The notes: generated by a model not told the origin, from the sequence alone. A stretch of 64,000 nt of DNA from an uncultured Candidatus Peribacteria bacterium (GCA_964473745.1 CAYYQE010000008.1:73-64072); one strand, 5' to 3'; counted from the first letter of the stretch, positions 31,792 through 46,269 are shown. Program-made: numbers and translations.

Positions 31792-31815
31792 GTAATTAGG
31801 TTATTTTGTCTCGTG

Positions 31816-33572: not shown

Positions 33573-34463
33573 CTAAAACTGCACATTTTGGCGTTTCAAT
33601 TTTGAGCGGCCCAATTCTGATTCCTTTAGGTGATAATCCGCCAACACAATCCCCAGCTGCTCCGCCGTCGTTCGAGCCATTTTACGAGGACCCGGCATCC
33701 ATTCCTCTACTCCATCCATCACAATCGCCCCCCAAAATTCTCCATAAAGATCACGAATCGCAGCAATCATTCGACCATCATTTACCAAATGCCGACGATC
33801 TTTCCCAAGCAACTCTTCTATCCCCAATAATTCCTGCGTCGAAAGCTGATAATCACCCCAAGTCACTTTTACTTCTAAATGCCCAGTAACCTGATTTTTA
33901 AGGGCAATTGCCCCTTTTGGTGCCTGCGTAGCCAAAGCTAATTTACTACTTATTCGCGTTAACATTTTATCAATATCGCCTTTGAAATCATGCATCATTT
34001 TTGAAACATCATACATGGCCACTAATTCTTGATTAGCCCACTGCAAACGTTGGTTTACCACCTTAAAAAGAGCTAATAAAAGAGCACTCGCTTCATCAGG
34101 TTTTTCCACCAAAAACTTCTCAAAATCTGCTTTTTTAAGCACCAAAACTTCAACATCATCAATCGCCACAGCCGAAGCATTCCGCGGTTTTGCTGAAAGC
34201 AACGAACCTTCACCAAAAATCGCTCCCGGATCCAAAATAGCCAATACTTTTTTCTGATCATCACGAATTCTTTTGGCAATTTCAATATGCCCACTCAATA
34301 AAAGATACAGCTCTGAACTTGTTTCTGCTTCTTCAAAAATCAATTCCTTTTTTTCAAAATGCTTCTTTTCCCAAATTCCTTTTCCAGAAATAATTCTTTC
34401 TTGCTCTTCTGGAGCAAGGGCGGAAAAAAAATCTTCAATCTGTGAATGAAAACTCTTAGCCAT
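33573..34463 (-). CDS. Cyclic-nucleotide-binding domain protein with C-terminal GAF-like region
   Basis: A cNMP-binding beta-barrel pattern is present (ELYLLLSGHIEIAKRI...LDPGAIFGEGSLL...RNASAVA). The likely start is MAKSFHS at 34463, overlapping the pilT stop by 8 nt. Confidence 0.7.
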   Translation of the reverse strand: MAKSFHSQIEDFFSALAPEEQERIISGKGIWEKKHFEKKELIFEEAETSSELYLLLSGHIEIAKRIRDDQKKVLAILDPGAIFGEGSLLSAKPRNASAVAIDDVEVLVLKKADFEKFLVEKPDEASALLLALFKVVNQRLQWANQELVAMYDVSKMMHDFKGDIDKMLTRISSKLALATQAPKGAIALKNQVTGHLEVKVTWGDYQLSTQELLGIEELLGKDRRHLVNDGRMIAAIRDLYGEFWGAIVMDGVEEWMPGPRKMARTTAEQLGIVLADYHLKESELGRSKLKRQNVQF

Positions 34464-35520
34464 TAGAAATTTTTTGTTTAAAGGCTTCGATATCATGGGC
34501 TTTGGCCATCGCTGCCTCGGGAGTTACTGTACCATTTGCCACTAAATCAGCCAAGGAATCATCCAAAGTTTGCATCCCCTCACTTTTACCAATTTGAAGC
34601 ATAGAATAAATCTGGTGCGTTTGTCCTTCTTTCACACAATTACGCATCGCATCGTTCATTACCAATATTTCAAAAGCAGCGGCCCGACCTTTTCCATCAG
34701 CACGCGGCACCAAAGTCTGCGAAATCACTCCAAGTAATCCTACTGAAAGCTGAGCTCTAATCTGTTCTTGTTGATAAGCCGGAAAAACATCAATCATTCG
34801 ATCTACAGTTTGAGCCGCATCCGTAGTATGCAAAGTTGAAAGCACTAAATGCCCGGTTTCTGCCAAAGTAATGGCCGCAGCAATTGTCTCTAAATCACGC
34901 ATTTCTCCTACCAAAACCACGTCTGGATCCTGCCGCAAAGCCGACCGAATGGCCGTACTAAACGAGTCAGTATGCGAATTAACTTCACGTTGCGTAATTA
35001 AAGCGTTTTTTGAGGTATGAATAAACTCAATCGGATCTTCCACTGTAATAATATGACATTTGCGATTCGTATTCGCGTAATCAATCATCGACGCCAAAGT
35101 TGTGGACTTTCCACTCCCGGTTGGACCAGTAACCAAAATTAATCCCCGCGGCTTCATGGCAAATTCCCCAAAAATCGGGGGCAACCCCATTGACTCCAAC
35201 GAAGGCGGGCTACTGGGAATCGACCGGAAAGCAAGGGCAGTCCCCTCCTTCTCCTGATACAAATTAACTCTAAATCGACCCACATTCGGCGATCCATAAG
35301 AAAAATCTACTTCCTTGTGTTCCTGAAAAATAAGAAACTTCTTCTCTCCCGCTACTTTTTGCGCTATGGCTAGAATTTCTTCTTCTGTTAAAGCCGGCAT
35401 TTTATCTGTTGAAAAAAGCTCACCATTTGACTGACGAATAACCGGTGGACTCCCCACTTTTAGATGGAGATCCGGAGCATGACTCTCTACCACTTGTTTT
35501 AAGATCAAATCAATATCCAT
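34456..35520 (-). CDS. pilT: Type IV pilus retraction ATPase PilT
   Basis: A Walker A motif (GPTGSGKST), the GEMRD motif and the GHLVLSTLHT His box are present. Confidence 0.9.
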   Translation of the reverse strand: MDIDLILKQVVESHAPDLHLKVGSPPVIRQSNGELFSTDKMPALTEEEILAIAQKVAGEKKFLIFQEHKEVDFSYGSPNVGRFRVNLYQEKEGTALAFRSIPSSPPSLESMGLPPIFGEFAMKPRGLILVTGPTGSGKSTTLASMIDYANTNRKCHIITVEDPIEFIHTSKNALITQREVNSHTDSFSTAIRSALRQDPDVVLVGEMRDLETIAAAITLAETGHLVLSTLHTTDAAQTVDRMIDVFPAYQQEQIRAQLSVGLLGVISQTLVPRADGKGRAAAFEILVMNDAMRNCVKEGQTHQIYSMLQIGKSEGMQTLDDSLADLVANGTVTPEAAMAKAHDIEAFKQKISNG

Positions 35521-35619
35521 AAATTTTGGAATTTAATCCTGTTATTATAGCACAAAAGAGCATTAAAAGGAATAGTTACCGGTCGCTTTTTCAACATATC
35601 CTCCAAACCTTATAAACTC

Positions 35620-35647
35620 TTGACTTTTGTAGCGTTTAACGTATAAT
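35620..35647 (+). promoter_or_regulatory. Near-consensus sigma-70 promoter in front of GC-rich island 1
   Basis: TTGACT (35620..35625), a 16-nt spacer, then TATAAT (35642..35647). It is divergent from pilT. Confidence 0.6.
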
Positions 35648-35754
35648 AATCAGCCTTGGCTTCTACCTAGAAACCATCTCCCCCCGTGGAGAATGAGTGT
35701 CTGGCTGCCGCCAAGACGCTTGTTCTTTCACATTCTCATGCCCGGAGCATACCC

Positions 35755-36381
35755 ATGTCCCGTTCCCTCCTCATCACCCTCGGCCTCGCCCTTGGCCTCG
35801 CCCTTGGCCTCGTCGGTATCGCCTGGTTCAGCGTCTACAAATCGAACCGCCTCAACGAGCGCAACGATCTGCGCGCCGAGGTCGCCGAGTACCTGGTCGA
35901 AACCGAGAAGGAAGCCGTCGACAACGCGATGAAGATCTCCCTCGGTGCCCTCAACAACTTCCAAAAGGGTGAATTCTACCACCGCAAGTCGAAAGTCGGC
36001 GCCAAGACCGTCGGCCTCTTCTCCCACGACCTCGAGCCTGCTCTGACCTTCCTGGTCGACCTCGAGCGCGCCGTCCACGCAACCACCTTCTTCTTCAACT
36101 ACTCGAGCACCGAGCAGCAGGCCCTGTTCGACTGCAACGGCGGGTTCAACGGCTTCGCCGTCCCCGCCGCCCTGCAGCACAACCTGGGCCACATTCGGAG
36201 CTTCAAGTGGCAAGTCTCGGACCTCGAGCTCACCACCGAAGCCATCACCACCGCCCAGGCCGAGTGGGCCACGCTCAAGGAGACCATGGACGTCAGCCTG
36301 CAGACCGCCTCGGCCCTGGCCCTCGATGACAACCCCTGGCGCTGCGTGTGGCCGGACGAGGTGGACGAGGAGCAGCTCTGA
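35755..36381 (+). CDS. Hypothetical signal-anchored protein encoded in GC-rich island 1
   Basis: A GGAG sits 7 nt upstream of the ATG at 35755. The 208-aa product starts MSRSLLITLGLALGLALGLVGIAWF (TM helix), and third codon positions are very G/C-rich. The ORF is open back to a GTG at 35686. I see no recognisable domain. Confidence 0.6.
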   Translation: MSRSLLITLGLALGLALGLVGIAWFSVYKSNRLNERNDLRAEVAEYLVETEKEAVDNAMKISLGALNNFQKGEFYHRKSKVGAKTVGLFSHDLEPALTFLVDLERAVHATTFFFNYSSTEQQALFDCNGGFNGFAVPAALQHNLGHIRSFKWQVSDLELTTEAITTAQAEWATLKETMDVSLQTASALALDDNPWRCVWPDEVDEEQL

Positions 36382-36455
36382 TGGATCCCCGAACCCTCAT
36401 CCTCCTCCTGGGCCTCACCGCCGCCGCCCTCTACGACTACTGGCTGATCATCTAG
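36381..36455 (+). CDS. 24-aa hydrophobic micropeptide, translationally coupled
   Basis: The TGATG stop/start overlap at 36379..36383 links it to the upstream ORF. My translation is MDPRTLILLLGLTAAALYDYWLII, with a TAG at 36453..36455, and codon bias matches the upstream ORF. Confidence 0.4.
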   Translation: MDPRTLILLLGLTAAALYDYWLII

Positions 36456-36488
36456 GCCTGCGGAACTGTGAAACGACCGAGCGTACAT

Positions 36489-36512
36489 GCCTCCCTCATC
36501 CCCGAGGGAGGC
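36489..36512 (+). terminator. GC-rich hairpin closing island 1
   Basis: GCCTCCCTC-atcccc-GAGGGAGGC forms a 9-bp perfect stem. The downstream T-tract is weak (CTTCGCTTATAAAAATTT). Confidence 0.55.
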
Positions 36513-36575
36513 CTTCGCTTATAAAAATTTCAAACCCGCCTTCCCACGCGCCCCTGAAAATGATAAAAAAGAAGC

Positions 36576-37220
36576 ATGAACCAACGACAACAAGTAATTT
36601 TAGAAATTCAACAAGCCGCGCTCCAAATAATTCAAGAGCGCTATGAGGACTTCCCATATCACAACGCTACCCACACCGGTTTTGTGATCGAAACTGCCAA
36701 TCTCTTGGCCCAAGACGCCAAACTTCCACAAGATCAACTCGAACTACTTACTTTAATGGCTGCGGCCCACGATTTAGTCCAAACCCACGATCCTCTTGCT
36801 GACGGGTATCTTGGCGAAAACGAAAATGAATCCGCTGACTGGCTCGCTGAACAAATGCTTGCCTCAGGCCAATTCGAAGACGACGAAATCGAACAAGCTC
36901 GTCGCGGCATAGAAGCCACCTTCATCCTCCATCGCGAAGACGGTATCAAACAATCCGCTGAATTTGGTGATTTTTTAAGTGAACTTCTTTGTGACGCTGA
37001 TCTTGCCAACCTCGGCAGTCCCTGGGACGTCTATTTCCCCAAAACCAAAGACTATTTCCAAGAAATCAACCCCAACTCAACCGAAGAAGAATGGAAGCAC
37101 TATTTACGTCTTCAAGTCCCAATCCTCCTCCAACACCACTACTACACCACCGTCGCCCAAGAACGATTCCCTCATTTACGTGAAAATGCCACAAAAATAG
37201 AAGACTCCTTAAAAGCCTAA
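36576..37220 (+). CDS. HD-domain phosphohydrolase-like protein
   Basis: A 214-aa ORF with H...HD spacing (YHNATHTGFV ... AAAHDLVQTHD). Confidence 0.55.
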   Translation: MNQRQQVILEIQQAALQIIQERYEDFPYHNATHTGFVIETANLLAQDAKLPQDQLELLTLMAAAHDLVQTHDPLADGYLGENENESADWLAEQMLASGQFEDDEIEQARRGIEATFILHREDGIKQSAEFGDFLSELLCDADLANLGSPWDVYFPKTKDYFQEINPNSTEEEWKHYLRLQVPILLQHHYYTTVAQERFPHLRENATKIEDSLKA

Positions 37221-38149
37221 TCCAGCTCCAAAACCTCTGGCAACCAATTACAATAATTGCCTTCTTTTTTTAATTCTTCCCTAATTTTGCGCATTTCTTT
37301 GCGCCACATCCCTTCAGAATAATTTTCATTCAAAATCATAAACTTCCCGTGATTCACTCCTACACACCCAAACATATGATGCGAATTAAAAACCCGCACA
37401 CAAAATTCCGCATCACGCGTATTCCCACACTGCCAACAAAAATTACAGTTATACAAATCATATCCCATCACACATTCATACAACAACTCGCCAGTCATAC
37501 ATTCGGTATCATAAATATCCTTACTTTTATCCACAATATGATAAGAATTTGCCGCGTCCTCGACATCATTCATGGAATAACAATTCAAACAATTCTTGGA
37601 ATTATAAATATGATCTCCGGTGCAATTTTCGGAATGAAGCTGAACCGACGCAATATGGGGAATTTTTTCACGCAGTGCTCCCACTTTTTCCAAAACTTCT
37701 TGCTGTTTTGCCGGAGTATCGGCCCGAAGCTCAGCTATTTTTTGCAAATACTCTTCTTTGGAATAAGGGGCATTAAAAATATGAAAACTTTTTTGCCTAA
37801 GCCCCACACACCCAAAACAATCATTACAACTTTTGCAATCATAACAAAACTGCAAATCGCGTGACCCCACACATTCCTCGCAAAAATCACAGTTATAACA
37901 CCGCTCACAAAACTCACATTCATAACAAAGTTCACACTTCATGCAGTGATACGTATCGCAACAATCTTTAAGCGTATTTGGATAGTAACAATAATAAGAA
38001 TCCTCACATTTATACCCAACAAAACACATGTAGGAATCCTTGGAAAAAGACAAACAATGCACGTAATCGCAGTTCTTGTTTGTTACCGAACGCAACGCAT
38101 ATGTTGGCTGGGATTCCAGTAGTTTTTTGAATTTTTCCAAAAAGCTCAT
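37217..38149 (-). CDS. Cysteine-ladder repeat protein, paralog A (uncharacterised)
   Basis: A 310-aa protein with about 32 Cys. It contains a CxxC ladder (CMKCELCYECEFCERCYNCDFCEEC) and an internal duplication whose halves end in CNDCFGCVGLRQKSFHIFNAPYSKEEY and HHMFGCVGVNHGKFMILNENYSEGMW. Confidence 0.7.
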   Translation of the reverse strand: MSFLEKFKKLLESQPTYALRSVTNKNCDYVHCLSFSKDSYMCFVGYKCEDSYYCYYPNTLKDCCDTYHCMKCELCYECEFCERCYNCDFCEECVGSRDLQFCYDCKSCNDCFGCVGLRQKSFHIFNAPYSKEEYLQKIAELRADTPAKQQEVLEKVGALREKIPHIASVQLHSENCTGDHIYNSKNCLNCYSMNDVEDAANSYHIVDKSKDIYDTECMTGELLYECVMGYDLYNCNFCWQCGNTRDAEFCVRVFNSHHMFGCVGVNHGKFMILNENYSEGMWRKEMRKIREELKKEGNYCNWLPEVLELD

Positions 38150-38164
38150 GAGCAGATTATAACA

Positions 38165-38446
38165 CTACCCCAGATGCTTCCAAAAACATTCCTGACAATA
38201 AACAATATATTTAGATTCCGGAGAATAAGTCGAAATAATATCGTTTTGGCACTTATCACATTTTCGTTTATATAATTTACGCTCATTCCGAAGAGAAAGT
38301 CGCCTTTTTTGACGACAATCCGGACAATTTTCTGGAAACGGCAGGTCTTTTTTCTTATAAAACTTCTGTTCCTGCTCAATTATCAAAAAATCCTTTGAGC
38401 AAGCCTTACATTTTGCAACCTTATTTTCAGTAGTAGTTTCTGTCAT
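38165..38446 (-). CDS. Stand-alone double zinc-ribbon protein
   Basis: A 93-aa protein with four CxxC pairs (CKAC...CPDC...CDKC...CQEC). It is homologous to both termini of the 533-aa fusion protein. Confidence 0.7.
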   Translation of the reverse strand: MTETTTENKVAKCKACSKDFLIIEQEQKFYKKKDLPFPENCPDCRQKRRLSLRNERKLYKRKCDKCQNDIISTYSPESKYIVYCQECFWKHLG

Positions 38447-38466
38447 GATTAGAAGGGTTAAATTAT

Positions 38467-39411
38467 TTAAGAAAGTTCAGGGACAGCCAATTCTGGATAG
38501 GTCGTTGGCAAATGTTTACCATATTCACCACTAGCTCTCATCTCAGCCTTAATCTCTGCTACTTTGCGGTGCCAATCCTCCTTGGAATACTGCTTATTAA
38601 AGATGCAATATTCTGCTCGATTCATCGTAAAACACCCAAACATATGATGCGAATTGTAAACATTTTCACAATACTCCAAATCATAAGAATCGAAAACCCC
38701 GTAACAATAGTTACAATTCGTAATATTCATGGCTGACATGATTTCGTAATTAAGCTCCGACTTATAATAATTATTTGAACAATCTAGAGAATCGGTAATT
38801 TCCTCACAATTATTCAAATAAGAACAATCCTGAAGTTTCTTAACATCAAAACAGTAATAACAATTCTTACAATTATAAATATAATCACCAAAAGATTTCT
38901 CGTTTTGATCGCCTCGAAGCATTAATCGCGGCATCTTCTTTTTAAGCTCCTTCACCTGCTGATCAATCTCTTCTCGCGATATTTGCTTTAATTCAGCTAA
39001 TTTAGATTCATACTCCTTCTTTGTGAATTTCTCATTAAAAATGTGATATTCCTTGCGCCGCAAACCCACACATCCAAAACAATCATTACACCCAACCATG
39101 TCAAAACAGTGCCGTAAACTTCGTGAACTTTTACAATCCTGACACCCTTCACATTCATAACATTCATGACAGTCTACACAGTCGTAACAAAGTCGACAAT
39201 AAAAGCAATAATCACAATCCGTGCAGTCCTCAGAGTTATATAAAAAGTATCCATAATAACAATCTTCGTCATATTCACTCCCCACTAACAAATAACAATT
39301 TTTAGTGTTCCCACTGTAATTTACAAATTCGCTGTTTTCGCAATTTACATAGAGTAAACCGACTCGCGGATGCTTATTTCTAAGCTCAATCATTTGATGA
39401 ATGTAGGACAT
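38467..39411 (-). CDS. Cysteine-ladder repeat protein, paralog B (uncharacterised)
   Basis: A 314-aa protein with the same architecture and signatures as paralog A (CNDCFGCVGLRRKEYHIFNEKFTKKEY; HHMFGCFTMNRAEYCIFNKQYSKEDW). Confidence 0.7.
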   Translation of the reverse strand: MSYIHQMIELRNKHPRVGLLYVNCENSEFVNYSGNTKNCYLLVGSEYDEDCYYGYFLYNSEDCTDCDYCFYCRLCYDCVDCHECYECEGCQDCKSSRSLRHCFDMVGCNDCFGCVGLRRKEYHIFNEKFTKKEYESKLAELKQISREEIDQQVKELKKKMPRLMLRGDQNEKSFGDYIYNCKNCYYCFDVKKLQDCSYLNNCEEITDSLDCSNNYYKSELNYEIMSAMNITNCNYCYGVFDSYDLEYCENVYNSHHMFGCFTMNRAEYCIFNKQYSKEDWHRKVAEIKAEMRASGEYGKHLPTTYPELAVPELS

Positions 39412-39514
39412 AATGTTGACAAATTAAATGACGATTGCATAGTAACACCTACCCACCAAATGTCAAGCGCTGACGACGCAATCCCGCCGTCGAAAAACTT
39501 TCGACAATCCCTTT

Positions 39515-41521
39515 CTAAAGCAGTATCATTTCCTTTAAATCAAAGGCATTAATCGGGTTAAATTCATCGGCATGTTCGCTGGCATATTTAACTGTGGCCT
39601 CATAAAGAGCCCAGTGACTATCTTGCATGTTTTGTGATCGGAAATCCGGTGTCTCTTCATGTACCCCAACTTCAAAAGGCGGCTCTTTTGTCACTTGCTT
39701 ACTATCATCCTCCCAATACACCGGCCAAAAAGGCGTACCTTGCAAATAAAAATTATTCTCGTGATATTTCATATTAATAAACTGCGGACCATTCTCCGCC
39801 TCCACCATCTGTTCTACGGCTCTAATAAACACATCCTCCCCTCCGGTCTGTGAACGCACCCATTCATACAATTTGACCTCAGAATGTTCGGGACGAACAT
39901 AAGATCCATAACGCTCATCTCCTAAATCTGGGTCGTTTCGACTTACAACAAACTGCCCTCCCTTATCCTTATAAACCTTGGCCAAAACCTCTCCAATTTC
40001 ACCCCCAACAGAAACCCCAGTAATTAACGGCGCATAACCAATCGCATCTTTTACAAACTGGTATCCGCCAGGTTCATCCAAAGTAAGCCCTGTTTCTAAA
40101 TCTAACCGATACTCCTCGTATTCGGTAAGAATCTTTTCCAATTCAACTTTATCCATTTCATTTAATCCTACTAAATCTTCAAACCCACTATAATAAGGAG
40201 TTGCTGGCCGCACATGATACGAAATTGCCACCATTTCCGAACTACTTAGTCGCTCCACCAACTCCGGATAATCCGCCACATAATTCTGAAAAGACGGACC
40301 TGTCACATAAATATCCACCGGCACCTGATACTGCTCGTGAATATCAATCACCTTATTAATTGCTTCCGCACTATTCTCAGGATACACCCAATCATGCACA
40401 TTTAAGGTAAAAAGGGTGTAAACATCCTTCAAATCATCATTTTGGACCGCGACCACATCCAACGCTACGGATTCTAAATAAACCTGAACTACATCCCACT
40501 GACTAGCCCATTGCAAAACTCCGTCATCTTGTAATTTTTGCGTTTCGGAAAAAAAGTAGCGAAGGGCATCTTCATTTTCCTCTTCAAAAATACTAACTGG
40601 CAAATAAACATTTAATTTCGCCACACGCGTTTTATCTCTAACAGACTCCATCTCCAAAACCTGCTCCAGGAATGCATCAACATCCTCACGCGTAAGTTCT
40701 GCCTCATCATCAAAACCGCCATCATCGGCCTGACTGGCCAAAGTCCCCATATCACCACTACTTATCACAATTATCCCATCCTCATCATGTTCAAAATCAT
40801 TTAAATCCTTGAGTTTCATTAAATAAATACGATCTTCTAAATTTTCGGGAGCTGGGTCATGAAAATGATCCAAAATATATTCGTCGGTCCAGGTTGGGTC
40901 TGGTCTATTTTCTTGCGGAATCGGAAGCAAAGCTCGCGCCACAATCCCATCTATATATTTAAATCCCGCAATTTCCGCTGCCGTTACCCAATCATTCATG
41001 CCATTTCCTCCTGAACAACCATGATTATTTTCTTCGCCGATCAGATCATCAACCAAAGCCTTATTAACCGCAAAAGCCTTTGAAAACTCCATCGGATTCA
41101 ACTCATTATCCGTATACTTCGGCCCCAAATCACAGTGAGTCCCCACCCCATGTCCACGATCCATGATTTCTTTCATCATATTGTGATCCCAAAGCGTATT
41201 CGCCCTGGCAAACGGCTGCTCAGATTCAATCGTCAAAATCGCGTCATACTCATCCGCCATATCCATTCCATATCGAAGTTCTTCCACATGCCTCCAAAAC
41301 ATATTCTCATTCTCATCATCATTATGACCAATTTCCATGTGAGTCATAGTGGTCATGTAAAGAGGATATTCTTGAACCGTTTCTTCTGGTAAATCTAGCG
41401 GCAGAACCTCATCAATAACCTGTTCAGGGACCTCTTCATCTAAATTATTCCAATAAAAAAGACCGCCAATCCCAAAAATTAAAACAAAAAAAAGCACCGA
41501 AAGGATAATATTACGTCTCAT
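39515..41521 (-). CDS. Signal-anchored extracytoplasmic protein, unknown function
   Basis: A 668-aa protein with an N-terminal TM helix (IILSVLFFVLIFGIGGLFYW). It has two roughly similar halves with His/Asp-rich motifs (HMEIGHNDD, GTHCD; NVHDWV, SYHVRP), possibly a metal-dependent carbohydrate esterase-like fold. This is a weak call. Confidence 0.5.
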   Translation of the reverse strand: MRRNIILSVLFFVLIFGIGGLFYWNNLDEEVPEQVIDEVLPLDLPEETVQEYPLYMTTMTHMEIGHNDDENENMFWRHVEELRYGMDMADEYDAILTIESEQPFARANTLWDHNMMKEIMDRGHGVGTHCDLGPKYTDNELNPMEFSKAFAVNKALVDDLIGEENNHGCSGGNGMNDWVTAAEIAGFKYIDGIVARALLPIPQENRPDPTWTDEYILDHFHDPAPENLEDRIYLMKLKDLNDFEHDEDGIIVISSGDMGTLASQADDGGFDDEAELTREDVDAFLEQVLEMESVRDKTRVAKLNVYLPVSIFEEENEDALRYFFSETQKLQDDGVLQWASQWDVVQVYLESVALDVVAVQNDDLKDVYTLFTLNVHDWVYPENSAEAINKVIDIHEQYQVPVDIYVTGPSFQNYVADYPELVERLSSSEMVAISYHVRPATPYYSGFEDLVGLNEMDKVELEKILTEYEEYRLDLETGLTLDEPGGYQFVKDAIGYAPLITGVSVGGEIGEVLAKVYKDKGGQFVVSRNDPDLGDERYGSYVRPEHSEVKLYEWVRSQTGGEDVFIRAVEQMVEAENGPQFINMKYHENNFYLQGTPFWPVYWEDDSKQVTKEPPFEVGVHEETPDFRSQNMQDSHWALYEATVKYASEHADEFNPINAFDLKEMILL

Positions 41522-41584
41522 ATTTGGAGGGTTAGTTTTCTTGATTATCTTACCACAAAAGCTGTTTTACCCTACAATGACCCC

Positions 41585-43186
41585 ATGAATACCTGCACCC
41601 AATGTCAAAATACGTTCGAAATTTCTGAAAAAAATCAGACTTTTTACGAACAAATCGCAGTCCCGCCACCAAAAAAATGCCCGGACTGTCGTTTAGTACG
41701 CCGTTTTATCGAACGCAATCCCAAAACTCTATACTATAGACTTTGCGATTTCACCAAAAACAATACTCTTTCTCAATTTCACGCTGATCAACCTTTTCCA
41801 GTTTACAGTCCAGAATCTTGGTGGAGCGAGAATTGGGACATCTTAAAATATGGTCAGGATTTTGACTTTGATCGCCCTTTTTTCGAACAATTTTTGGAAC
41901 TCAAAAACCGAACTCCACACCTCGCGCTCTTTAACACTGGTGGCACTATCCAAAACAGTGATTTCAACAACTGCACCGCTTATTTAAAAGACTGCTACTT
42001 AATTGCGGAAAGCGACTACTGTGAAGCCTGTTATTACTCAAATTTATTAAAAAATTGCCAATCCGTCGTGGACTGCTCAGTCTGCTACAAAGACGAACTT
42101 TGCTACGAATGTATCGACTGCACTAATTGTTATGCCTTACTCTATTCCCAAGACTGCCAAACCTGTAAAGATAGCTATTTTCTCCAAAACTGTACCTCCT
42201 GCTCTGATTGTATTGGCTGTATCAACCAACGCCAGCAGCAGTACCTAATTTTCAATAAAAAATACTCAAAAGAAGAATACGAAAAATTTAAAAACCAATT
42301 TGCTCTAAACACAAAAGAAGGAGTCGCTAAACTTGCACAAACCTGCACGGAATTCTTTTTAACCCAACCGAGAAAAAACCTCATCGCCGAACATAATGAA
42401 GGAAGCTCCGGAGATCATCTTTTCAACTCCAAAAACGCGCACCACTGTTTTGACAGCATTGATTTAGAAGATTGCTCCTACTGCGCCAAACTAACTCTGG
42501 GCGTCAAAACCTCTATGGATTACAATTCCTGGGGAAACAAATGCGAACTCATGTATCAGTGCACTTCCTGCGGGGATCACTGCTATAACTTAAAATTCTG
42601 CGCCAACTGCCAAAGTGACATGAATAATTGTGAATACTGCGTCGAATGTTTTGGCTGCTCCGACTGCTTTGGCTGCGCTAATCTAAAAAAAGAAAGCTTT
42701 TGCATCTTTAATAAAAAATACTCCGAAAAAGACTATCACGAGCTAAAAAATCGCATCATTGCCCATATGAAAAAAACGGGTGAATATGGCGAATTTTTTC
42801 CAATCGAAATTTGTCCGTACGGGTACAACGAAACCATGGCCATGGACGCTTTTCCCCTCACCAAAGAACAAGCTCTTGAACAAGGATTCAAATGGTATGA
42901 CCCCCCTGAACCAAAATCATCCAGCAATACGAACGCCGCCCTTTGCGATTGCGGCAAAAACTTTAAAATCATCAACCAAGAAGTAGTTTTTTACAAAAAA
43001 CTAAACATCCCCACTCCTGATAAATGCCCCCTCTGCCGTCACAAAACCCGCATAGCCAAACGTAGGCCACTTAAATTATGGGACCGTAAGTGCACCAAAT
43101 GCAACGCCGCCATTAAATCTAATTACGCCCCCGAACGTCCCGAAATAATCTACTGCGAAAAATGTTATTTAAAGGAGGTCTATTAA
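41585..43186 (+). CDS. Fusion protein: zinc-ribbon + duplicated cysteine-ladder domain + double zinc-ribbon (paralog C)
   Basis: A 533-aa protein. The N-terminus (CTQCQNTFEISEKNQTFYEQ...CPDCRLVRR) and C-terminus (CDCGKNFKIINQEVVFYKK...CPLCRHKTR...CTKC...YCEKCY) both match the 93-aa protein. The middle matches paralogs A and B. Confidence 0.75.
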   Translation: MNTCTQCQNTFEISEKNQTFYEQIAVPPPKKCPDCRLVRRFIERNPKTLYYRLCDFTKNNTLSQFHADQPFPVYSPESWWSENWDILKYGQDFDFDRPFFEQFLELKNRTPHLALFNTGGTIQNSDFNNCTAYLKDCYLIAESDYCEACYYSNLLKNCQSVVDCSVCYKDELCYECIDCTNCYALLYSQDCQTCKDSYFLQNCTSCSDCIGCINQRQQQYLIFNKKYSKEEYEKFKNQFALNTKEGVAKLAQTCTEFFLTQPRKNLIAEHNEGSSGDHLFNSKNAHHCFDSIDLEDCSYCAKLTLGVKTSMDYNSWGNKCELMYQCTSCGDHCYNLKFCANCQSDMNNCEYCVECFGCSDCFGCANLKKESFCIFNKKYSEKDYHELKNRIIAHMKKTGEYGEFFPIEICPYGYNETMAMDAFPLTKEQALEQGFKWYDPPEPKSSSNTNAALCDCGKNFKIINQEVVFYKKLNIPTPDKCPLCRHKTRIAKRRPLKLWDRKCTKCNAAIKSNYAPERPEIIYCEKCYLKEVY

Positions 43187-43569
43187 ACCCTCCCCACAAA
43201 CATTCCCAATTCCTTAAACAACGGCACCCACGTCTCATATTTTTTGGAAAGGAGAATTTTGTAGGTTTTGGGTTCATTGCTGCGCACGACCAACACATTT
43301 TTGTTCAAACCATATTTCCCCTGCGCCACATACTCGATATCTTTAAGTGGCAGGTTAAAAACAAATGGATTCGGATGCCACGGCTTACCTGTTATCATCC
43401 CCCACACCTTGCGTGGCCATTCATAAAAAATTGTTAGCCAGTGCACGGTCGTAACTTTCAAAACTAGGCGCTGATTTGTTAAGTACAGCCGATAACTCAT
43501 GTTCATATTAAATTTCATATAACGAACATAATCGTCGACCAATAATTTTTCGTTTGGATGAAGTTGCAT
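43183..43569 (-). CDS. Hypothetical 128-aa protein (bacterial PH-domain-like?)
   Basis: An ORF with host-like composition. The pattern RLYLTNQRLVLK ... LPLKDIEYV is reminiscent of bPH/GRAM-like folds. This is a weak call. Confidence 0.4.
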   Translation of the reverse strand: MQLHPNEKLLVDDYVRYMKFNMNMSYRLYLTNQRLVLKVTTVHWLTIFYEWPRKVWGMITGKPWHPNPFVFNLPLKDIEYVAQGKYGLNKNVLVVRSNEPKTYKILLSKKYETWVPLFKELGMFVGRV

Positions 43570-43588
43570 GTGAATATTTTAGCACAGC

Positions 43589-43616
43589 TTGACTCATCCT
43601 CAACTTGCCCTACACT
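43589..43616 (+). promoter_or_regulatory. Sigma-70-type promoter in front of GC-rich island 2
   Basis: TTGACT (43589..43594), a 16-nt spacer, then TACACT (43611..43616). Confidence 0.45.
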
Positions 43617-43706
43617 TAAGCCACCTAATCTCGTGATTTCGCTCCACCCCAACCTGAGAGCGGACTCCAGAAAGGTCCCGTTCTTACACAAATTGGAGGT
43701 CCTCTC

Positions 43707-44066
43707 ATGGACTGGAAGAAGTTGGCCATCTGGGCCTTCAAGTTTCTCTATGCCGGAGGTATCGGCCTGTTCGCTGGCGGTTTGACATGGATTGTCACTG
43801 CCAACGCACTCTGCGGAGGGATCGTGCTGATCATGGCGTTCTTGACCAAGAAGTACGCCCTGAATAACCTGATCTCCGAACTCTCGCTGAAGCATCTCCT
43901 GATCGCAGAAATCGGTTGCCCCATCGTGGTGGGACTGGAGATGATCCTGGTCGTGGGCGCCTACAAGCTGCTTGGCTGGGAATTCGTCCTTGTCGTATCC
44001 ACGATTCTGGCCTTCTCTGGCTTGGCTGTAGACAGAAAGATCAACCCCTCGATCGCCAGCCAGTGA
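43707..44066 (+). CDS. Hypothetical 119-aa four-helix membrane protein in GC-rich island 2
   Basis: A strong RBS (GGAGG) lies 7 nt upstream of the ATG. There are about four hydrophobic helices and G/C-biased codon third positions. Confidence 0.6.
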   Translation: MDWKKLAIWAFKFLYAGGIGLFAGGLTWIVTANALCGGIVLIMAFLTKKYALNNLISELSLKHLLIAEIGCPIVVGLEMILVVGAYKLLGWEFVLVVSTILAFSGLAVDRKINPSIASQ

Positions 44067-44090
44067 CCTCGGTGCAAGAACGGGCAAAAA

Positions 44091-44112
44091 CCCCCGCTGA
44101 AACATGCGGGGG
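44091..44112. terminator. GC-rich hairpin after the 119-aa ORF
   Basis: CCCCCGC-tgaaacat-GCGGGGG is preceded by AAAAA, so the T-tract is better on the minus strand. It may act bidirectionally. Confidence 0.5.
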
Positions 44113-44134
44113 TCTTGCCAAACAACAATTAATA

Positions 44135-44222
44135 TTTGTGCCCGGGCACAAACTCTAACCTGCAAATCTGTGCGTACGCACAGATTCACGTGCACTAAGG
44201 CGGCGTGATTGCTCACGCCGCC
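44135..44222. repeat. Array of three further perfect palindromes/hairpins
   Basis: The three are TTTGTGCCCGGGCACAAA (44135..44152), AATCTGTGCGTACGCACAGATT (44165..44186) and GGCGGCGTG-attgct-CACGCCGCC (44199..44222). CACGTGCAC lies between the last two. Confidence 0.8.
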
Positions 44223-44231
44223 AGGGCCTGT

Positions 44232-44363
44232 CTATTCATCTTCTTCTTCGCAAGCCATAACAGCTGCTGCGATTCCGACGATAACGCCCGCTGCAACACT
44301 GATCCAGTTGGCAACCAGAGCTCCCACAAGGAGCCCGACACCCACCGCTCGTACGTACTTCAT
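44232..44363 (-). CDS. 43-aa glycine-zipper-like hydrophobic peptide with acidic tail
   Basis: This ORF is not in the supplied track. My minus-strand translation is MKYVRAVGVGLLVGALVANWISVAAGVIVGIAAAVMACEEEDE. An AGGAG lies 8 nt upstream of the ATG at 44363, and the stop is at 44232..44234. Confidence 0.45.
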   Translation of the reverse strand: MKYVRAVGVGLLVGALVANWISVAAGVIVGIAAAVMACEEEDE

Positions 44364-44379
44364 CCGAAGACTCCTATTG

Positions 44380-44419
44380 GGTTAGCGACCTAACAACTTA
44401 AATTACCAGATCGCTAACC
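44380..44419 (-). promoter_or_regulatory. Inverted repeat in the leader of the 43-aa ORF
   Basis: GGTTAGCGA (44380..44388) and TCGCTAACC (44411..44419) are separated by 22 nt, just upstream of the RBS. This could be an operator or a 5'-UTR hairpin. Confidence 0.45.
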
Positions 44420-44540
44420 TAATATTAGACAGGACTTTTTTCAGACAAATTGCGCTAAATCTAGACAATTCATCAATCAAAAAAGCAACTAATTAAAGCA
44501 AGGATAAATTAATTTGTAAAGGATTTCCTAATCACGGATT

Positions 44541-44595: not shown

Positions 44596-46269
<1,674 letters not shown>

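Follow-up and report, generated by a model that had tools for sequence, protein, structure and literature searches.

The interval between the core genes pilT and groEL of an uncultured Candidatus Peribacteria bacterium contains two short GC-rich islands, each with a gene for a small membrane protein. Our analysis of the window (the whole stretch of 64,000 nucleotides, contig C8 of a 1.30-Mb metagenome-type assembly with 35 contigs and 42.6% GC) suggests that this interval is a hotspot in which the islands are probably old, native, vertically inherited and self-contained membrane-protein units with a high GC content at third codon positions (GC3), rather than foreign DNA or the ends of an element. 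We base this on features read directly from the genomes: the position of the islands, their inheritance, the pattern of their composition, the conservation of the leaders and trailers around their open reading frames (ORFs) and the complementarity between leader and trailer. A preliminary description of the region had seen in the islands two independent foreign insertions bracketing an unusual resident gene cluster. This origin is contradicted by orthologues at the same sites in two related genomes (G003 and G001), by a GC excess at silent positions only, by the lack of any homologue outside the genus in our searches and by paralogues of the leader and trailer of island 1.

The genes pilT and groEL were located in 14 relatives of the window's own genome (G000), and the intervals between them were then retrieved. 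Judged by the named sources of homologous proteins, the relatives of this genome are Candidatus Peregrinibacteria. G001, G002 and G003 belong to the same genus, G004, G005 and G008 to other genera of the same family, and G010, G011 and G014 to three other families of the order. Complete intervals of the long type came from G000, G002, G003 and G008, and the G001 contig is partial. All ORFs of at least 40 amino acids (aa) in the interval were accounted for, 10 ORFs were scanned against Pfam, and GC was profiled in windows of 300 nt. A search with PilT for related loci returned only matches of about 50% identity from unrelated phyla, with no synteny.

The GC content rises from about 0.38 to 0.59-0.68 at positions 35700-36600 (island 1, sharp segment 35.65-36.55 kb) and is 0.53-0.57 at 43650-44400 (island 2, sharp segment 43.65-44.40 kb), whereas the enclosed genes have a GC content of 0.32-0.46 and a GC3 of 0.31-0.50. 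The picture of two GC-rich islands (up to 68% and 57%) flanking genes of host-like composition is therefore confirmed, and the ORF map matches the gene order given in the preliminary description. The genome mean of GC3 is 0.378 with a standard deviation of 0.071. GC at the first, second and third codon position (GC1, GC2, GC3) is 0.62, 0.39 and 0.90 in the ORF of island 1 and 0.51, 0.38 and 0.77 in that of island 2. The proposed comparison of codon-usage distances gene by gene also set the islands apart (z = 7.9 and 5.3) and found the enclosed genes ordinary. Two plus-strand genes deviate slightly, owing to a strong replication-strand bias at third positions. Between positions 31800 and 52000, minus-strand genes have C at 0.04-0.19 and G at 0.20-0.34 of their third positions, and the plus-strand genes for the HD-type protein and the fusion protein (Table 1) have C at 0.38 and G at 0.07-0.08. 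This asymmetry inflates the codon-usage distance of native plus-strand genes.

About 17 GC3-rich genes are scattered in the genome, most of them encoding envelope proteins. The third positions of the 17 genes used for codon composition are A 0.05, T 0.09, G 0.35 and C 0.51, compared with A 0.27, T 0.36, G 0.19 and C 0.18 in reference genes, and their use of alanine and arginine is 0.99 and 1.10 times that of the reference. The GC excess of the islands is confined to silent positions, and their amino-acid usage is native.

Both island ORFs are present at matching sites in G003, and island 1 adjoins pilT in G001 (GC 0.58-0.68). The island 1 protein is 55% identical to its G003 orthologue over the aligned residues and 26% identical to that of G001, at a GC3 of 0.84-0.90; the G003 orthologue of the island 2 protein is 65-69% identical and has a GC3 of 0.80-0.81. 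The neighbouring genes of G000 and G003 have a synonymous divergence (dS) of 1.3-1.7, which is saturated, and a ratio of nonsynonymous to synonymous divergence (dN/dS) of 0.05-0.14. GC3 in G000 and G003 is 0.91 and 0.90 for island 1 and 0.77 and 0.81 for island 2. The proportion of synonymous differences (pS) is 0.26 in island 1 and 0.44 in island 2, by our estimate about the saturation value if only C and G are allowed, and dN is 0.34 and 0.21, several-fold (3-4 times) that of the neighbours (0.04-0.22). Since the high GC3 was kept despite saturated neighbours and a high dN, it appears to be held while the proteins change fast. Relatives with the same gene order, islands included, had been named beforehand as the observation that would speak against foreign insertion; they exist within part of the genus and not beyond it, and to this extent the claim is refuted.

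Two independent and fairly recent horizontal insertions from high-GC donors, not yet ameliorated, would explain the sharp GC boundaries and the extreme codon usage, the promoter and terminator that each unit seems to bring along, and the absence of both islands from G002 and from all genomes outside the genus. The GC-rich units moreover differ at the right edge, where G003 has an extra lipoprotein gene with an imperfect repeat of ~30 nt, and on contig C11 G000 has a GC-rich block of 5.3 kb that is found in no other genome. We nevertheless consider such an origin very unlikely. Proteins of genomes with 65-70% GC are expected to differ in GC1, GC2 and amino-acid usage, but all three are native here. 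The orthologues at the same sites have conserved leaders and are still at a GC3 of 0.84-0.90 after the proteins have diverged to 26-55% identity and the silent sites of the neighbours have become saturated. No homologue of the island ORFs was found outside the genus across 53 genera of the order. A word-indexed search of 5.8 billion clusters retrieved only the window's own protein for island 1, and only a 99% identical variant and the G003-type orthologue for island 2; a profile search of 1.84 billion cluster representatives with a hidden Markov model of island 1 retrieved only its own protein and the G001-type orthologue. In addition, the leader has paralogues in the genome, and neither integrase nor tRNA nor target duplication was found at the islands (see below). 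In a tree of three adjacent genes from four genomes, G000 and G002 are sisters (100% support), with G003 and G001 outside. Because G002 is the sister of G000, the absence of the islands from G002 is best read as loss, and this sister species most likely lost both of them. Judging from these comparisons, the islands are not foreign insertions, at least since the genus diversified, and for this period the recent-insertion view is largely refuted.

That the region is not a recognisable mobile element had been stated before, and our searches agree. There was no integrase-like or recombinase Pfam match among the 10 interval ORFs, no tRNA gene in the 64-kb window, no Rfam family in the window at gathering thresholds and no terminal repeat in the interval. 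The proposed search for short direct repeats at the island junctions gave only 8-nt matches, which is chance level. One of them, CTTATAAA on both sides of island 1, was considered as a target duplication and rejected: chance alone should give about 14 such pairs in 1.35 kb (our estimate), and it is not shared at the right junction in G003. Alignment to the empty site of G002 revealed no duplication and a clean 6-nt join of the conserved pilT-side and HD-side flanks. Integrase, tRNA or attachment-site (att) repeats, donor composition, donor homologues and recent gain, the usual marks of a mobile element or of an island acquired by horizontal gene transfer (HGT), are all lacking in the islands.

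The islands could also be chimeric pieces of a co-assembled high-GC organism, introduced by assembly or binning, as the genome is a metagenome-type assembly of 35 contigs. The probability of this is close to nil. The same units with their flanks are present in congeners and in an independent Logan contig of G003 type, which has the G003 arrangement and disposes of an assembly artefact, and the junctions lie inside conserved leaders and trailers.

The comparison of the pilT-groEL interval between relatives showed how variable it is. In the other families the gap between the two genes is 272 bp (G010) or ~1.2-1.4 kb (G011 and G014), with no matching genes; in the other genera G004 and G005 it is 1.2-1.7 kb and holds the HD gene, plus ~1.1 kb in G005. 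In this genus the gap is 6.2-9.1 kb. In G008 it reaches 12.7 kb, with genes for the HD protein, the fusion protein, the ribbon, ladder B, a TrmB regulator, an acyltransferase, two MopE/beta-helix proteins, an MgtE-like protein and Abi_C; the Abi_C (abortive infection) gene (L093 14015-14878) adjoins groEL. The cargo differs in each of G000, G002, G003 and G008. G003 is without the 668-aa gene, has a 47-residue remnant of the fusion gene, and carries in addition a TrmB regulator, a lipoprotein, a GC-rich lipoprotein gene and a 157-aa gene, and G002 is without the islands, the PH-like gene and the fusion gene and has the lipoprotein gene and the 668-aa gene. Since the flanking genes are near-adjacent in the outgroups and the content differs in every genome, the data support a lineage-specific hotspot of gene turnover, and the earlier view of a resident cluster in a hotspot stands. 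Less can be kept of the claim that everything between pilT and groEL is accessory. The interval is indeed variable and lineage-specific, but the HD gene adjoins pilT in every genome of the family with a recovered pilT flank (G004, G005, G006 and G008) and, as a conserved pilT neighbour, is by this comparison not accessory. We propose that the hotspot opened between two ancestrally adjacent core genes, that the HD-type phosphodiesterase-like gene joined pilT at the family level, that the ladder and zinc-ribbon cluster, from a family found across the Candidate Phyla Radiation (CPR), became resident in this genus and G008, and that the remaining genes were gained and lost between species.

The position of the islands on either side of the cluster had been taken to delimit an accessory region. 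Genome-wide, 26 GC islands were counted (at least 600 bp, peak GC at least 0.56), and one neighbouring pair within ~8 kb was seen where random placement predicts 3.7. A non-random bracketing of the cluster was therefore rejected; with about 17 GC3-rich genes in the genome, two of them within 8 kb are expected by chance. The promoter style TTGACT-N16-TAnnnT ascribed to both islands was read at both sites. The strict pattern occurs at 44 sites in the genome, as often as in shuffled sequence, and is located at most 400 nt upstream of 5 out of 15 GC-rich genes and of 22 out of 876 reference genes. This enrichment before GC-rich genes gives the idea of a common promoter style a measure of statistical backing.

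If the units are native, their GC3 might still be a by-product of GC-biased gene conversion, caused by frequent recombination of surface-protein genes. Lassalle et al. reportedly described a link between recombination and GC3 in bacteria in 2015, and several observations would suit it: the proteins change at 3-4 times the rate of their neighbours, they are envelope proteins located in a variable hotspot, and the island 1 mRNA has no more structure than its composition gives. We think this explanation unlikely. The step in GC3 falls precisely on the start and stop codons, and the GC of leaders and trailers is not extreme, which argues against conversion, since its tracts would ignore the ends of ORFs. 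Furthermore, 15 of the 17 GC-rich genes favour codons ending in C over those ending in G regardless of the replication strand, pointing to a force at the codon or transcript level. As to a native origin, high GC3 persists in other members of the class as well: orthologues of six other GC-rich genes have a GC3 of 0.62-0.97 (at least 0.8 in four) at 23-86% identity, and two of the six keep it high in other genera of the family. A shortened search of the relatives with concatenated GC-rich proteins missed short ORFs even in G000, so that absences in it are weak evidence.

Both islands encode small membrane proteins, as described before, one of 208 aa with an N-terminal anchor and one of 119 aa with several membrane passes (Table 1). 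The leader of island 1 is nearly identical in G003 and G001 despite the 55% and 26% protein identity, and it is conserved as nucleic acid, since G001 has a 1-nt indel that disrupts every possible reading frame across it. Its consensus hairpin has -21.6 kcal/mol, and the trailer hairpin shows a compensatory change in G001 (CCCCCC/GGGGGG). The duplex between leader and trailer is stronger than in shuffled sequences, with z of -3.2 to -3.4 in G000 and -2.9 in G003. The protein has no match in Pfam, NCBIfam or PADLOC; its AlphaFold model is of modest confidence, with a predicted local distance difference test score (pLDDT) of 67.7, and no fold match was found in the PDB (best E 0.36). From the two conserved cysteines (Table 1), a domain outside the cytoplasm would be expected. 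A candidate micro-ORF of 24 aa that overlaps the stop codon is not conserved in G003 or G001, and its coding status is therefore uncertain.

The leader of island 1 belongs to a family. A paralogue lies at C22:9715-9848 of G000 upstream of a second GC3-rich gene and is also found before the orthologues of that gene. A covariance model of the leader, termed R1, detects 2-3 copies per genome and is confined to this genus; island 1 scores 103.9 bits, and island 2 has no R1 match and a leader of its own. The R1 frame comprises a promoter, a leader with CCTTGG, a hairpin, the box CGYTTGTTCYTTYAC, a GC3-rich ORF with a transmembrane anchor, a trailer box GTGA..GAACAAGCG and a CCTCCC/GGGAGG hairpin. 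Where the trailer was recovered, the order stop codon, YGTGA..GAACAAGCG, CCTCCC/GGGAGG hairpin and CTTYGC is common to 7 units, and a 9-bp helix between leader box and trailer box is kept in 7 out of 7 units, with C:G, U:G or U:A at one position. All copies precede membrane-anchored ORFs with a GC3 of 0.82-0.90 and lengths of 44, 45, 79, 192-209, 213-243 or 479 aa. The largest, an anchored protein of 479 aa (L133 1343-2782, G002:C15), stands in tandem with the C22 orthologue, and the smallest are hydrophobic peptides of 44-45 aa (L134 1125-1262, G003:C29; L135 1107-1241, G001:C114), showing that one frame has very different cargo. The proteins of island 1 and C22 have a faint colinear profile similarity (49% probability), and the remaining cargoes show none. 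The second R1 unit of G002 was considered as a relocated island 1 and rejected, since the protein of 479 aa that it encodes is not similar to island 1.

In island 2, the region from the -35 box to the ATG is ~93% identical to G003. An inverted repeat of 13 nt (I2, 92% complementary) connects leader and trailer, both arms are kept in G003, and the duplex has a z of -3.5 in G000 and -2.9 in G003. The island 2 mRNA is modestly more structured than synonymous-codon shuffles (z -2.3). Like the protein of island 1, that of island 2 has no match in Pfam, NCBIfam or PADLOC. Homology to G003 ends beyond the island, where G000 has palindromes and a convergent 43-aa ORF and G003 has the 157-aa gene; the 43-aa ORF was seen in G000 only, not in G003, and has no paralogue in the genome. 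It could be argued that island 2, and perhaps the micro-ORF of island 1, form a type I toxin-antitoxin-like module in which a hydrophobic peptide is silenced by fold-back of its mRNA as in hok/Sok. The 43-aa ORF is hydrophobic, has a 5' hairpin and its own terminator and runs convergent to the membrane-protein gene, the trailer of the 119-aa gene can pair with the region of the Shine-Dalgarno sequence (SD), and the micro-ORF also encodes a hydrophobic product. But the ORFs that the pairing would enclose have 119 and 208 aa, far above type I toxins, the 43-aa and 24-aa ORFs are unconserved in G003 or G001, and there was no PADLOC or Rfam match. This makes a toxin-antitoxin module highly improbable.

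For the units themselves, we propose that each consists of a near-consensus promoter of sigma-70 type, a leader of 85-100 nt, a fast-evolving ORF with its synonymous sites held at G or C, mostly C, a trailer capable of base-pairing to the leader, and a terminator-like hairpin at the end. The units would be transcribed from their own promoters, with the predicted terminators in use, and the pairing of 5' and 3' ends might regulate translation or the lifetime of the mRNA. In island 2 the helix would occlude the SD, and in the family of island 1 the invariant box could pair either in the helix or in the local leader hairpin, with the two in competition. GC3 might be held by selection on the mRNA, for instance for resistance to RNases that prefer AU, rather than by biased gene conversion. 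In a bolder version, which we consider speculative and rather unlikely, the R1-type frame would be a modular expression scaffold: non-homologous GC3-rich membrane-protein cargoes (44-479 aa) would be exchanged or rapidly replaced while the RNA frame around them stays fixed, the 5'-3' helix would act as a gate for translation or as protection for the transcript, and recoding away from codons that end in A or U would give the body of the ORF resistance to AU-preferring RNases.

Several points weigh against native units with this kind of RNA control. The loss in G002 is deduced from three linked genes in four genomes, the G001 contig ends before the site of island 2, and the islands may have been imported long ago, at the base of the genus, from a donor not yet sampled. 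Promoters, transcript ends and 5'-3' pairing are predictions from the nucleotide sequence. The helix of the R1 family covaries at one position only, and the arms of the island 2 helix are invariant, without covariation, between the sole two species that have it. Two extensions were not supported: leader-trailer pairing as a general property of GC-rich units was rejected (z below -2 in 3 out of 14 units, Mann-Whitney p 0.046 against controls), and the island 1 mRNA is not structured beyond its composition (z -0.2 against synonymous-codon shuffles).

Table 1. Features of the pilT-groEL interval and its flanks (positions counted in the window)
Feature	Position	Strand	Details
pilT, type IV pilus retraction ATPase, 354 aa	34456-35520	-	orthologues 59-88% identical adjoin groEL or the HD gene across the order; T2SSE Pfam match on the G003-type orthologue
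Island 1 promoter-like site	35620-35647	+	TTGACT 35620-35625, 16-nt spacer, TATAAT 35642-35647; kept in G003 and G001
Island 1 leader, ~100 nt	35654-35754	+	5' CCTTGG; 18-bp imperfect hairpin 35688-35728; box CGCTTGTTCTTTCAC 35717-35731; SD GGAG 35744-35747
Island 1 ORF, 208 aa	35755-36381	+	N-terminal membrane anchor and ~170-aa domain; two conserved Cys (FDCNGGFNGF, NPWRC)
Candidate coupled hydrophobic micro-ORF, 24 aa	36381-36455	+	MDPRTLILLLGLTAAALYDYWLII; TGATG stop-start overlap; GC3 0.92
Island 1 trailer	36467-36512	+	box TGTGAAACGACCGAGCG 36467-36483, complementary to leader box; hairpin GCCTCCCTC/GAGGGAGGC 36489-36512
HD-type (phosphodiesterase-like) protein, 214 aa	36576-37220	+	sub-threshold HD and PDEase_I matches, E 0.03-0.05; orthologues in G001-G006 and G008
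Cysteine-ladder protein A, 310 aa	37217-38149	-	orthologues 75-85% identical in G001-G003
Free treble-clef zinc-ribbon protein, 93 aa	38165-38446	-	Pfam zf_Tbcl E 1e-8, zf_Tbcl_2 E 4e-5; orthologues 83-89% identical
Cysteine-ladder protein B, 314 aa	38467-39411	-	390 homologous clusters
668-aa protein, N-terminal signal or anchor	39515-41521	-	in G000 and G002, absent in G003; sub-threshold polysaccharide-deacetylase match, E 0.044
Fusion protein, 533 aa (zinc ribbon, ladder, zinc ribbon)	41585-43186	+	full orthologue (39%) in G008; G003 has a C-terminal remnant of 47 residues; not in G002
GRAM/PH-like protein, 128 aa	43183-43569	-	weak GRAM match, E 0.005; G003 orthologue 86%; absent in G002
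Island 2 promoter-like site	43589-43616	+	TTGACT 43589-43594, 16-nt spacer, TACACT 43611-43616
Island 2 leader	to 43706	+	arm CCCGTTCTTACAC 43677-43689; SD GGAGG 43695-43699
Island 2 ORF, 119 aa	43707-44066	+	multi-pass membrane protein; three segments exceed the hydropathy threshold; GC3 0.77
Island 2 trailer	44067-44116	+	CCTCGGTGCAAGAACGGG 44067-44084 can pair with leader arm and SD; terminator-like hairpin 44087-44116
Two perfect palindromes	44135-44186		TTTGTGCCCGGGCACAAA, AATCTGTGCGTACGCACAGATT; half-site TCTGTGC, N4, GCACAGA
43-aa hydrophobic ORF (44232-44363)	44199-44424	-	own SD; 5' hairpin 44375-44424; terminator-like hairpin 44199-44222
groEL	44596-46251	-	orthologues 60-96% identical across the order

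In the enclosed cluster, the fusion protein cross-matches the free zinc ribbon at both of its ends and the ladder proteins in its middle. No Pfam, NCBIfam or PADLOC match was found for the ladder proteins; every homologous cluster of ladder B with a named source comes from Peregrinibacteria, Gracilibacteria or other Patescibacteria, and the annotation is hypothetical throughout. On the pilT side, a gene for a protein binding cyclic nucleoside monophosphates (cNMP; PF00027, E 1e-22), pilT and the gene for the HD/PDEase-like protein (33573-37220) form a neighbourhood that is kept across the family. The HD protein may work with the adjacent cNMP-binding protein, and the conserved neighbourhood suggests a cyclic-nucleotide control of pilus retraction.

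The groEL-side edge of the interval contains further repeats. The perfect palindrome (A/T)TCTGTGCCCGGGCACAGA(T/A) has 7 copies in the genome, three of them inside a repeated element of ~100 nt and two after a TTGACA box; apart from the one in the window (44135-44186) they lie at C2:9849, C4:8295, C10:4827, C15:29316, C20:9272 and C21:2161. Next to island 2 there is one copy together with a variant that has a GTAC centre. The palindrome could serve a dimeric regulator as operator or represent a small hairpin element that is repeated in the genome. The extra GC-rich lipoprotein unit of G003 (L087 8716-9745; 200 aa, or 215 aa from a TTG start) is flanked by an imperfect direct repeat of ~30 nt that includes the -35 region of island 2, TTTTAGCATATCTTGACTCATCCCAACTT and TTTTAACGTACCTTGACTAAGCACCAACTT. 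The single copy in G000 (window 43570-43620) resembles the left repeat joined to the sequence downstream of the right repeat, which would fit either a deletion by recombination in G000 or an insertion with promoter duplication in G003.

Other GC-rich loci of the genome deserve mention. The block at C11:3051-8350 (5.3 kb) has three genes of cytoplasmic type (645, 369 and 278 aa) with a GC3 of 0.73-0.91. The 645-aa product is kinase-like on reading only, with no Pfam match at E of 0.001 or below, and the genes for 369 and 278 aa have no match in 30 relatives, a search from which the 645-aa gene was left out. This block would qualify as a truly foreign island better than islands 1 and 2 do. The GC-rich gene C14:30851-31456 has a conserved leader of its own (~150 nt, C14:30640-30870), which it shares with a 40% identical orthologue in G002 (L109). 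Several GC-rich genes (C14, C18, C11:39357 and C2) have a recurring motif CCTTGA(G/A)A in their leaders.

The islands are a counter-example to the routine equation of atypical GC with a recent foreign gene, since a GC3 of 0.8-0.9 was kept in a genome of 42% GC across speciation events. Screens for HGT and gene callers applied to CPR genomes will mislabel such genes. In the public gene calls for a G003-type contig (L132 3335-3721 and 9122-9712), the ORFs lie on the strand opposite to the ORF with coding-type GC3, both for the island 1 orthologue and for the extra unit, and protein databases thus likely hold wrong-frame products for this gene class. The conserved frames of leader and trailer around hypervariable ORFs suggest that episymbiotic bacteria have a layer of post-transcriptional control that is unstudied, and the genes framed in this way are those most likely to meet the host or the environment. 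If the scaffold model were true, the R1 frame, island 2 and the ~17 other GC3-rich genes would represent an undescribed CPR strategy for fast-evolving envelope proteins, and compositional islands could be a maintained native state. The interval also offers a dated and testable reconstruction of how a compact junction of core genes became an accessory region of 9 kb. We searched the literature for maintained GC3-rich genes in CPR genomes and found no account of them; exported proteins rich in cysteine are a topic of the Peribacteria genome paper, and such genes are not.

The predicted pairing of 5' and 3' ends invites comparison with the mRNAs of type I toxins of the hok/Sok type, in which fold-back of the two ends inhibits expression. 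The products are hydrophobic in both cases; in the islands the leader could pair with sequence just past the stop codon, and in island 2 this pairing would overlap the SD as well. Toxins of this type, however, are expected to have ~60 aa or less, whereas the ORFs here have 119-208 aa and up to 479 aa in the R1 family. No antisense RNA or mok-like frame was identified here, and no search aimed at antisense RNA was made; the products are not known to be toxic.

Phage morons, described by Hendrix and colleagues, are autonomous units of promoter, ORF and terminator with deviant composition. The island units are similar in being self-contained, with promoter-like and terminator-like sites, in their composition and in often encoding membrane proteins. 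They differ in lying outside a prophage, with pilT, the HD gene, the PH-like gene and groEL as neighbours, in being vertically inherited, and in keeping leader and trailer while the ORF changes.

Compositional genomic islands are usually explained by horizontal transfer, within the amelioration framework of Lawrence and Ochman. The islands studied here have the sharp GC boundaries, deviant codon usage, orphan genes and patchy distribution within a genus that are typical of them. In contrast to such islands, their deviation is limited to silent sites and has outlasted saturating divergence, their use of amino acids is native, our searches found no donor, and the leaders are conserved and have paralogues.

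Oliveira et al. reportedly described in 2017 chromosomal hotspots, or plasticity zones, between conserved core genes. The pilT-groEL interval resembles hotspots that lack an integrase: its core flanks are adjacent in distant relatives, its cargo differs in each genome and is rich in envelope, regulatory and abortive-infection genes, and no integrase is needed. It is different in that the HD gene and the ladder cluster are stably inherited and that the compositionally deviant pieces are old and not new. The region as such is thus ordinary, and its unusual part is the maintained GC3-rich, RNA-framed membrane-protein units.

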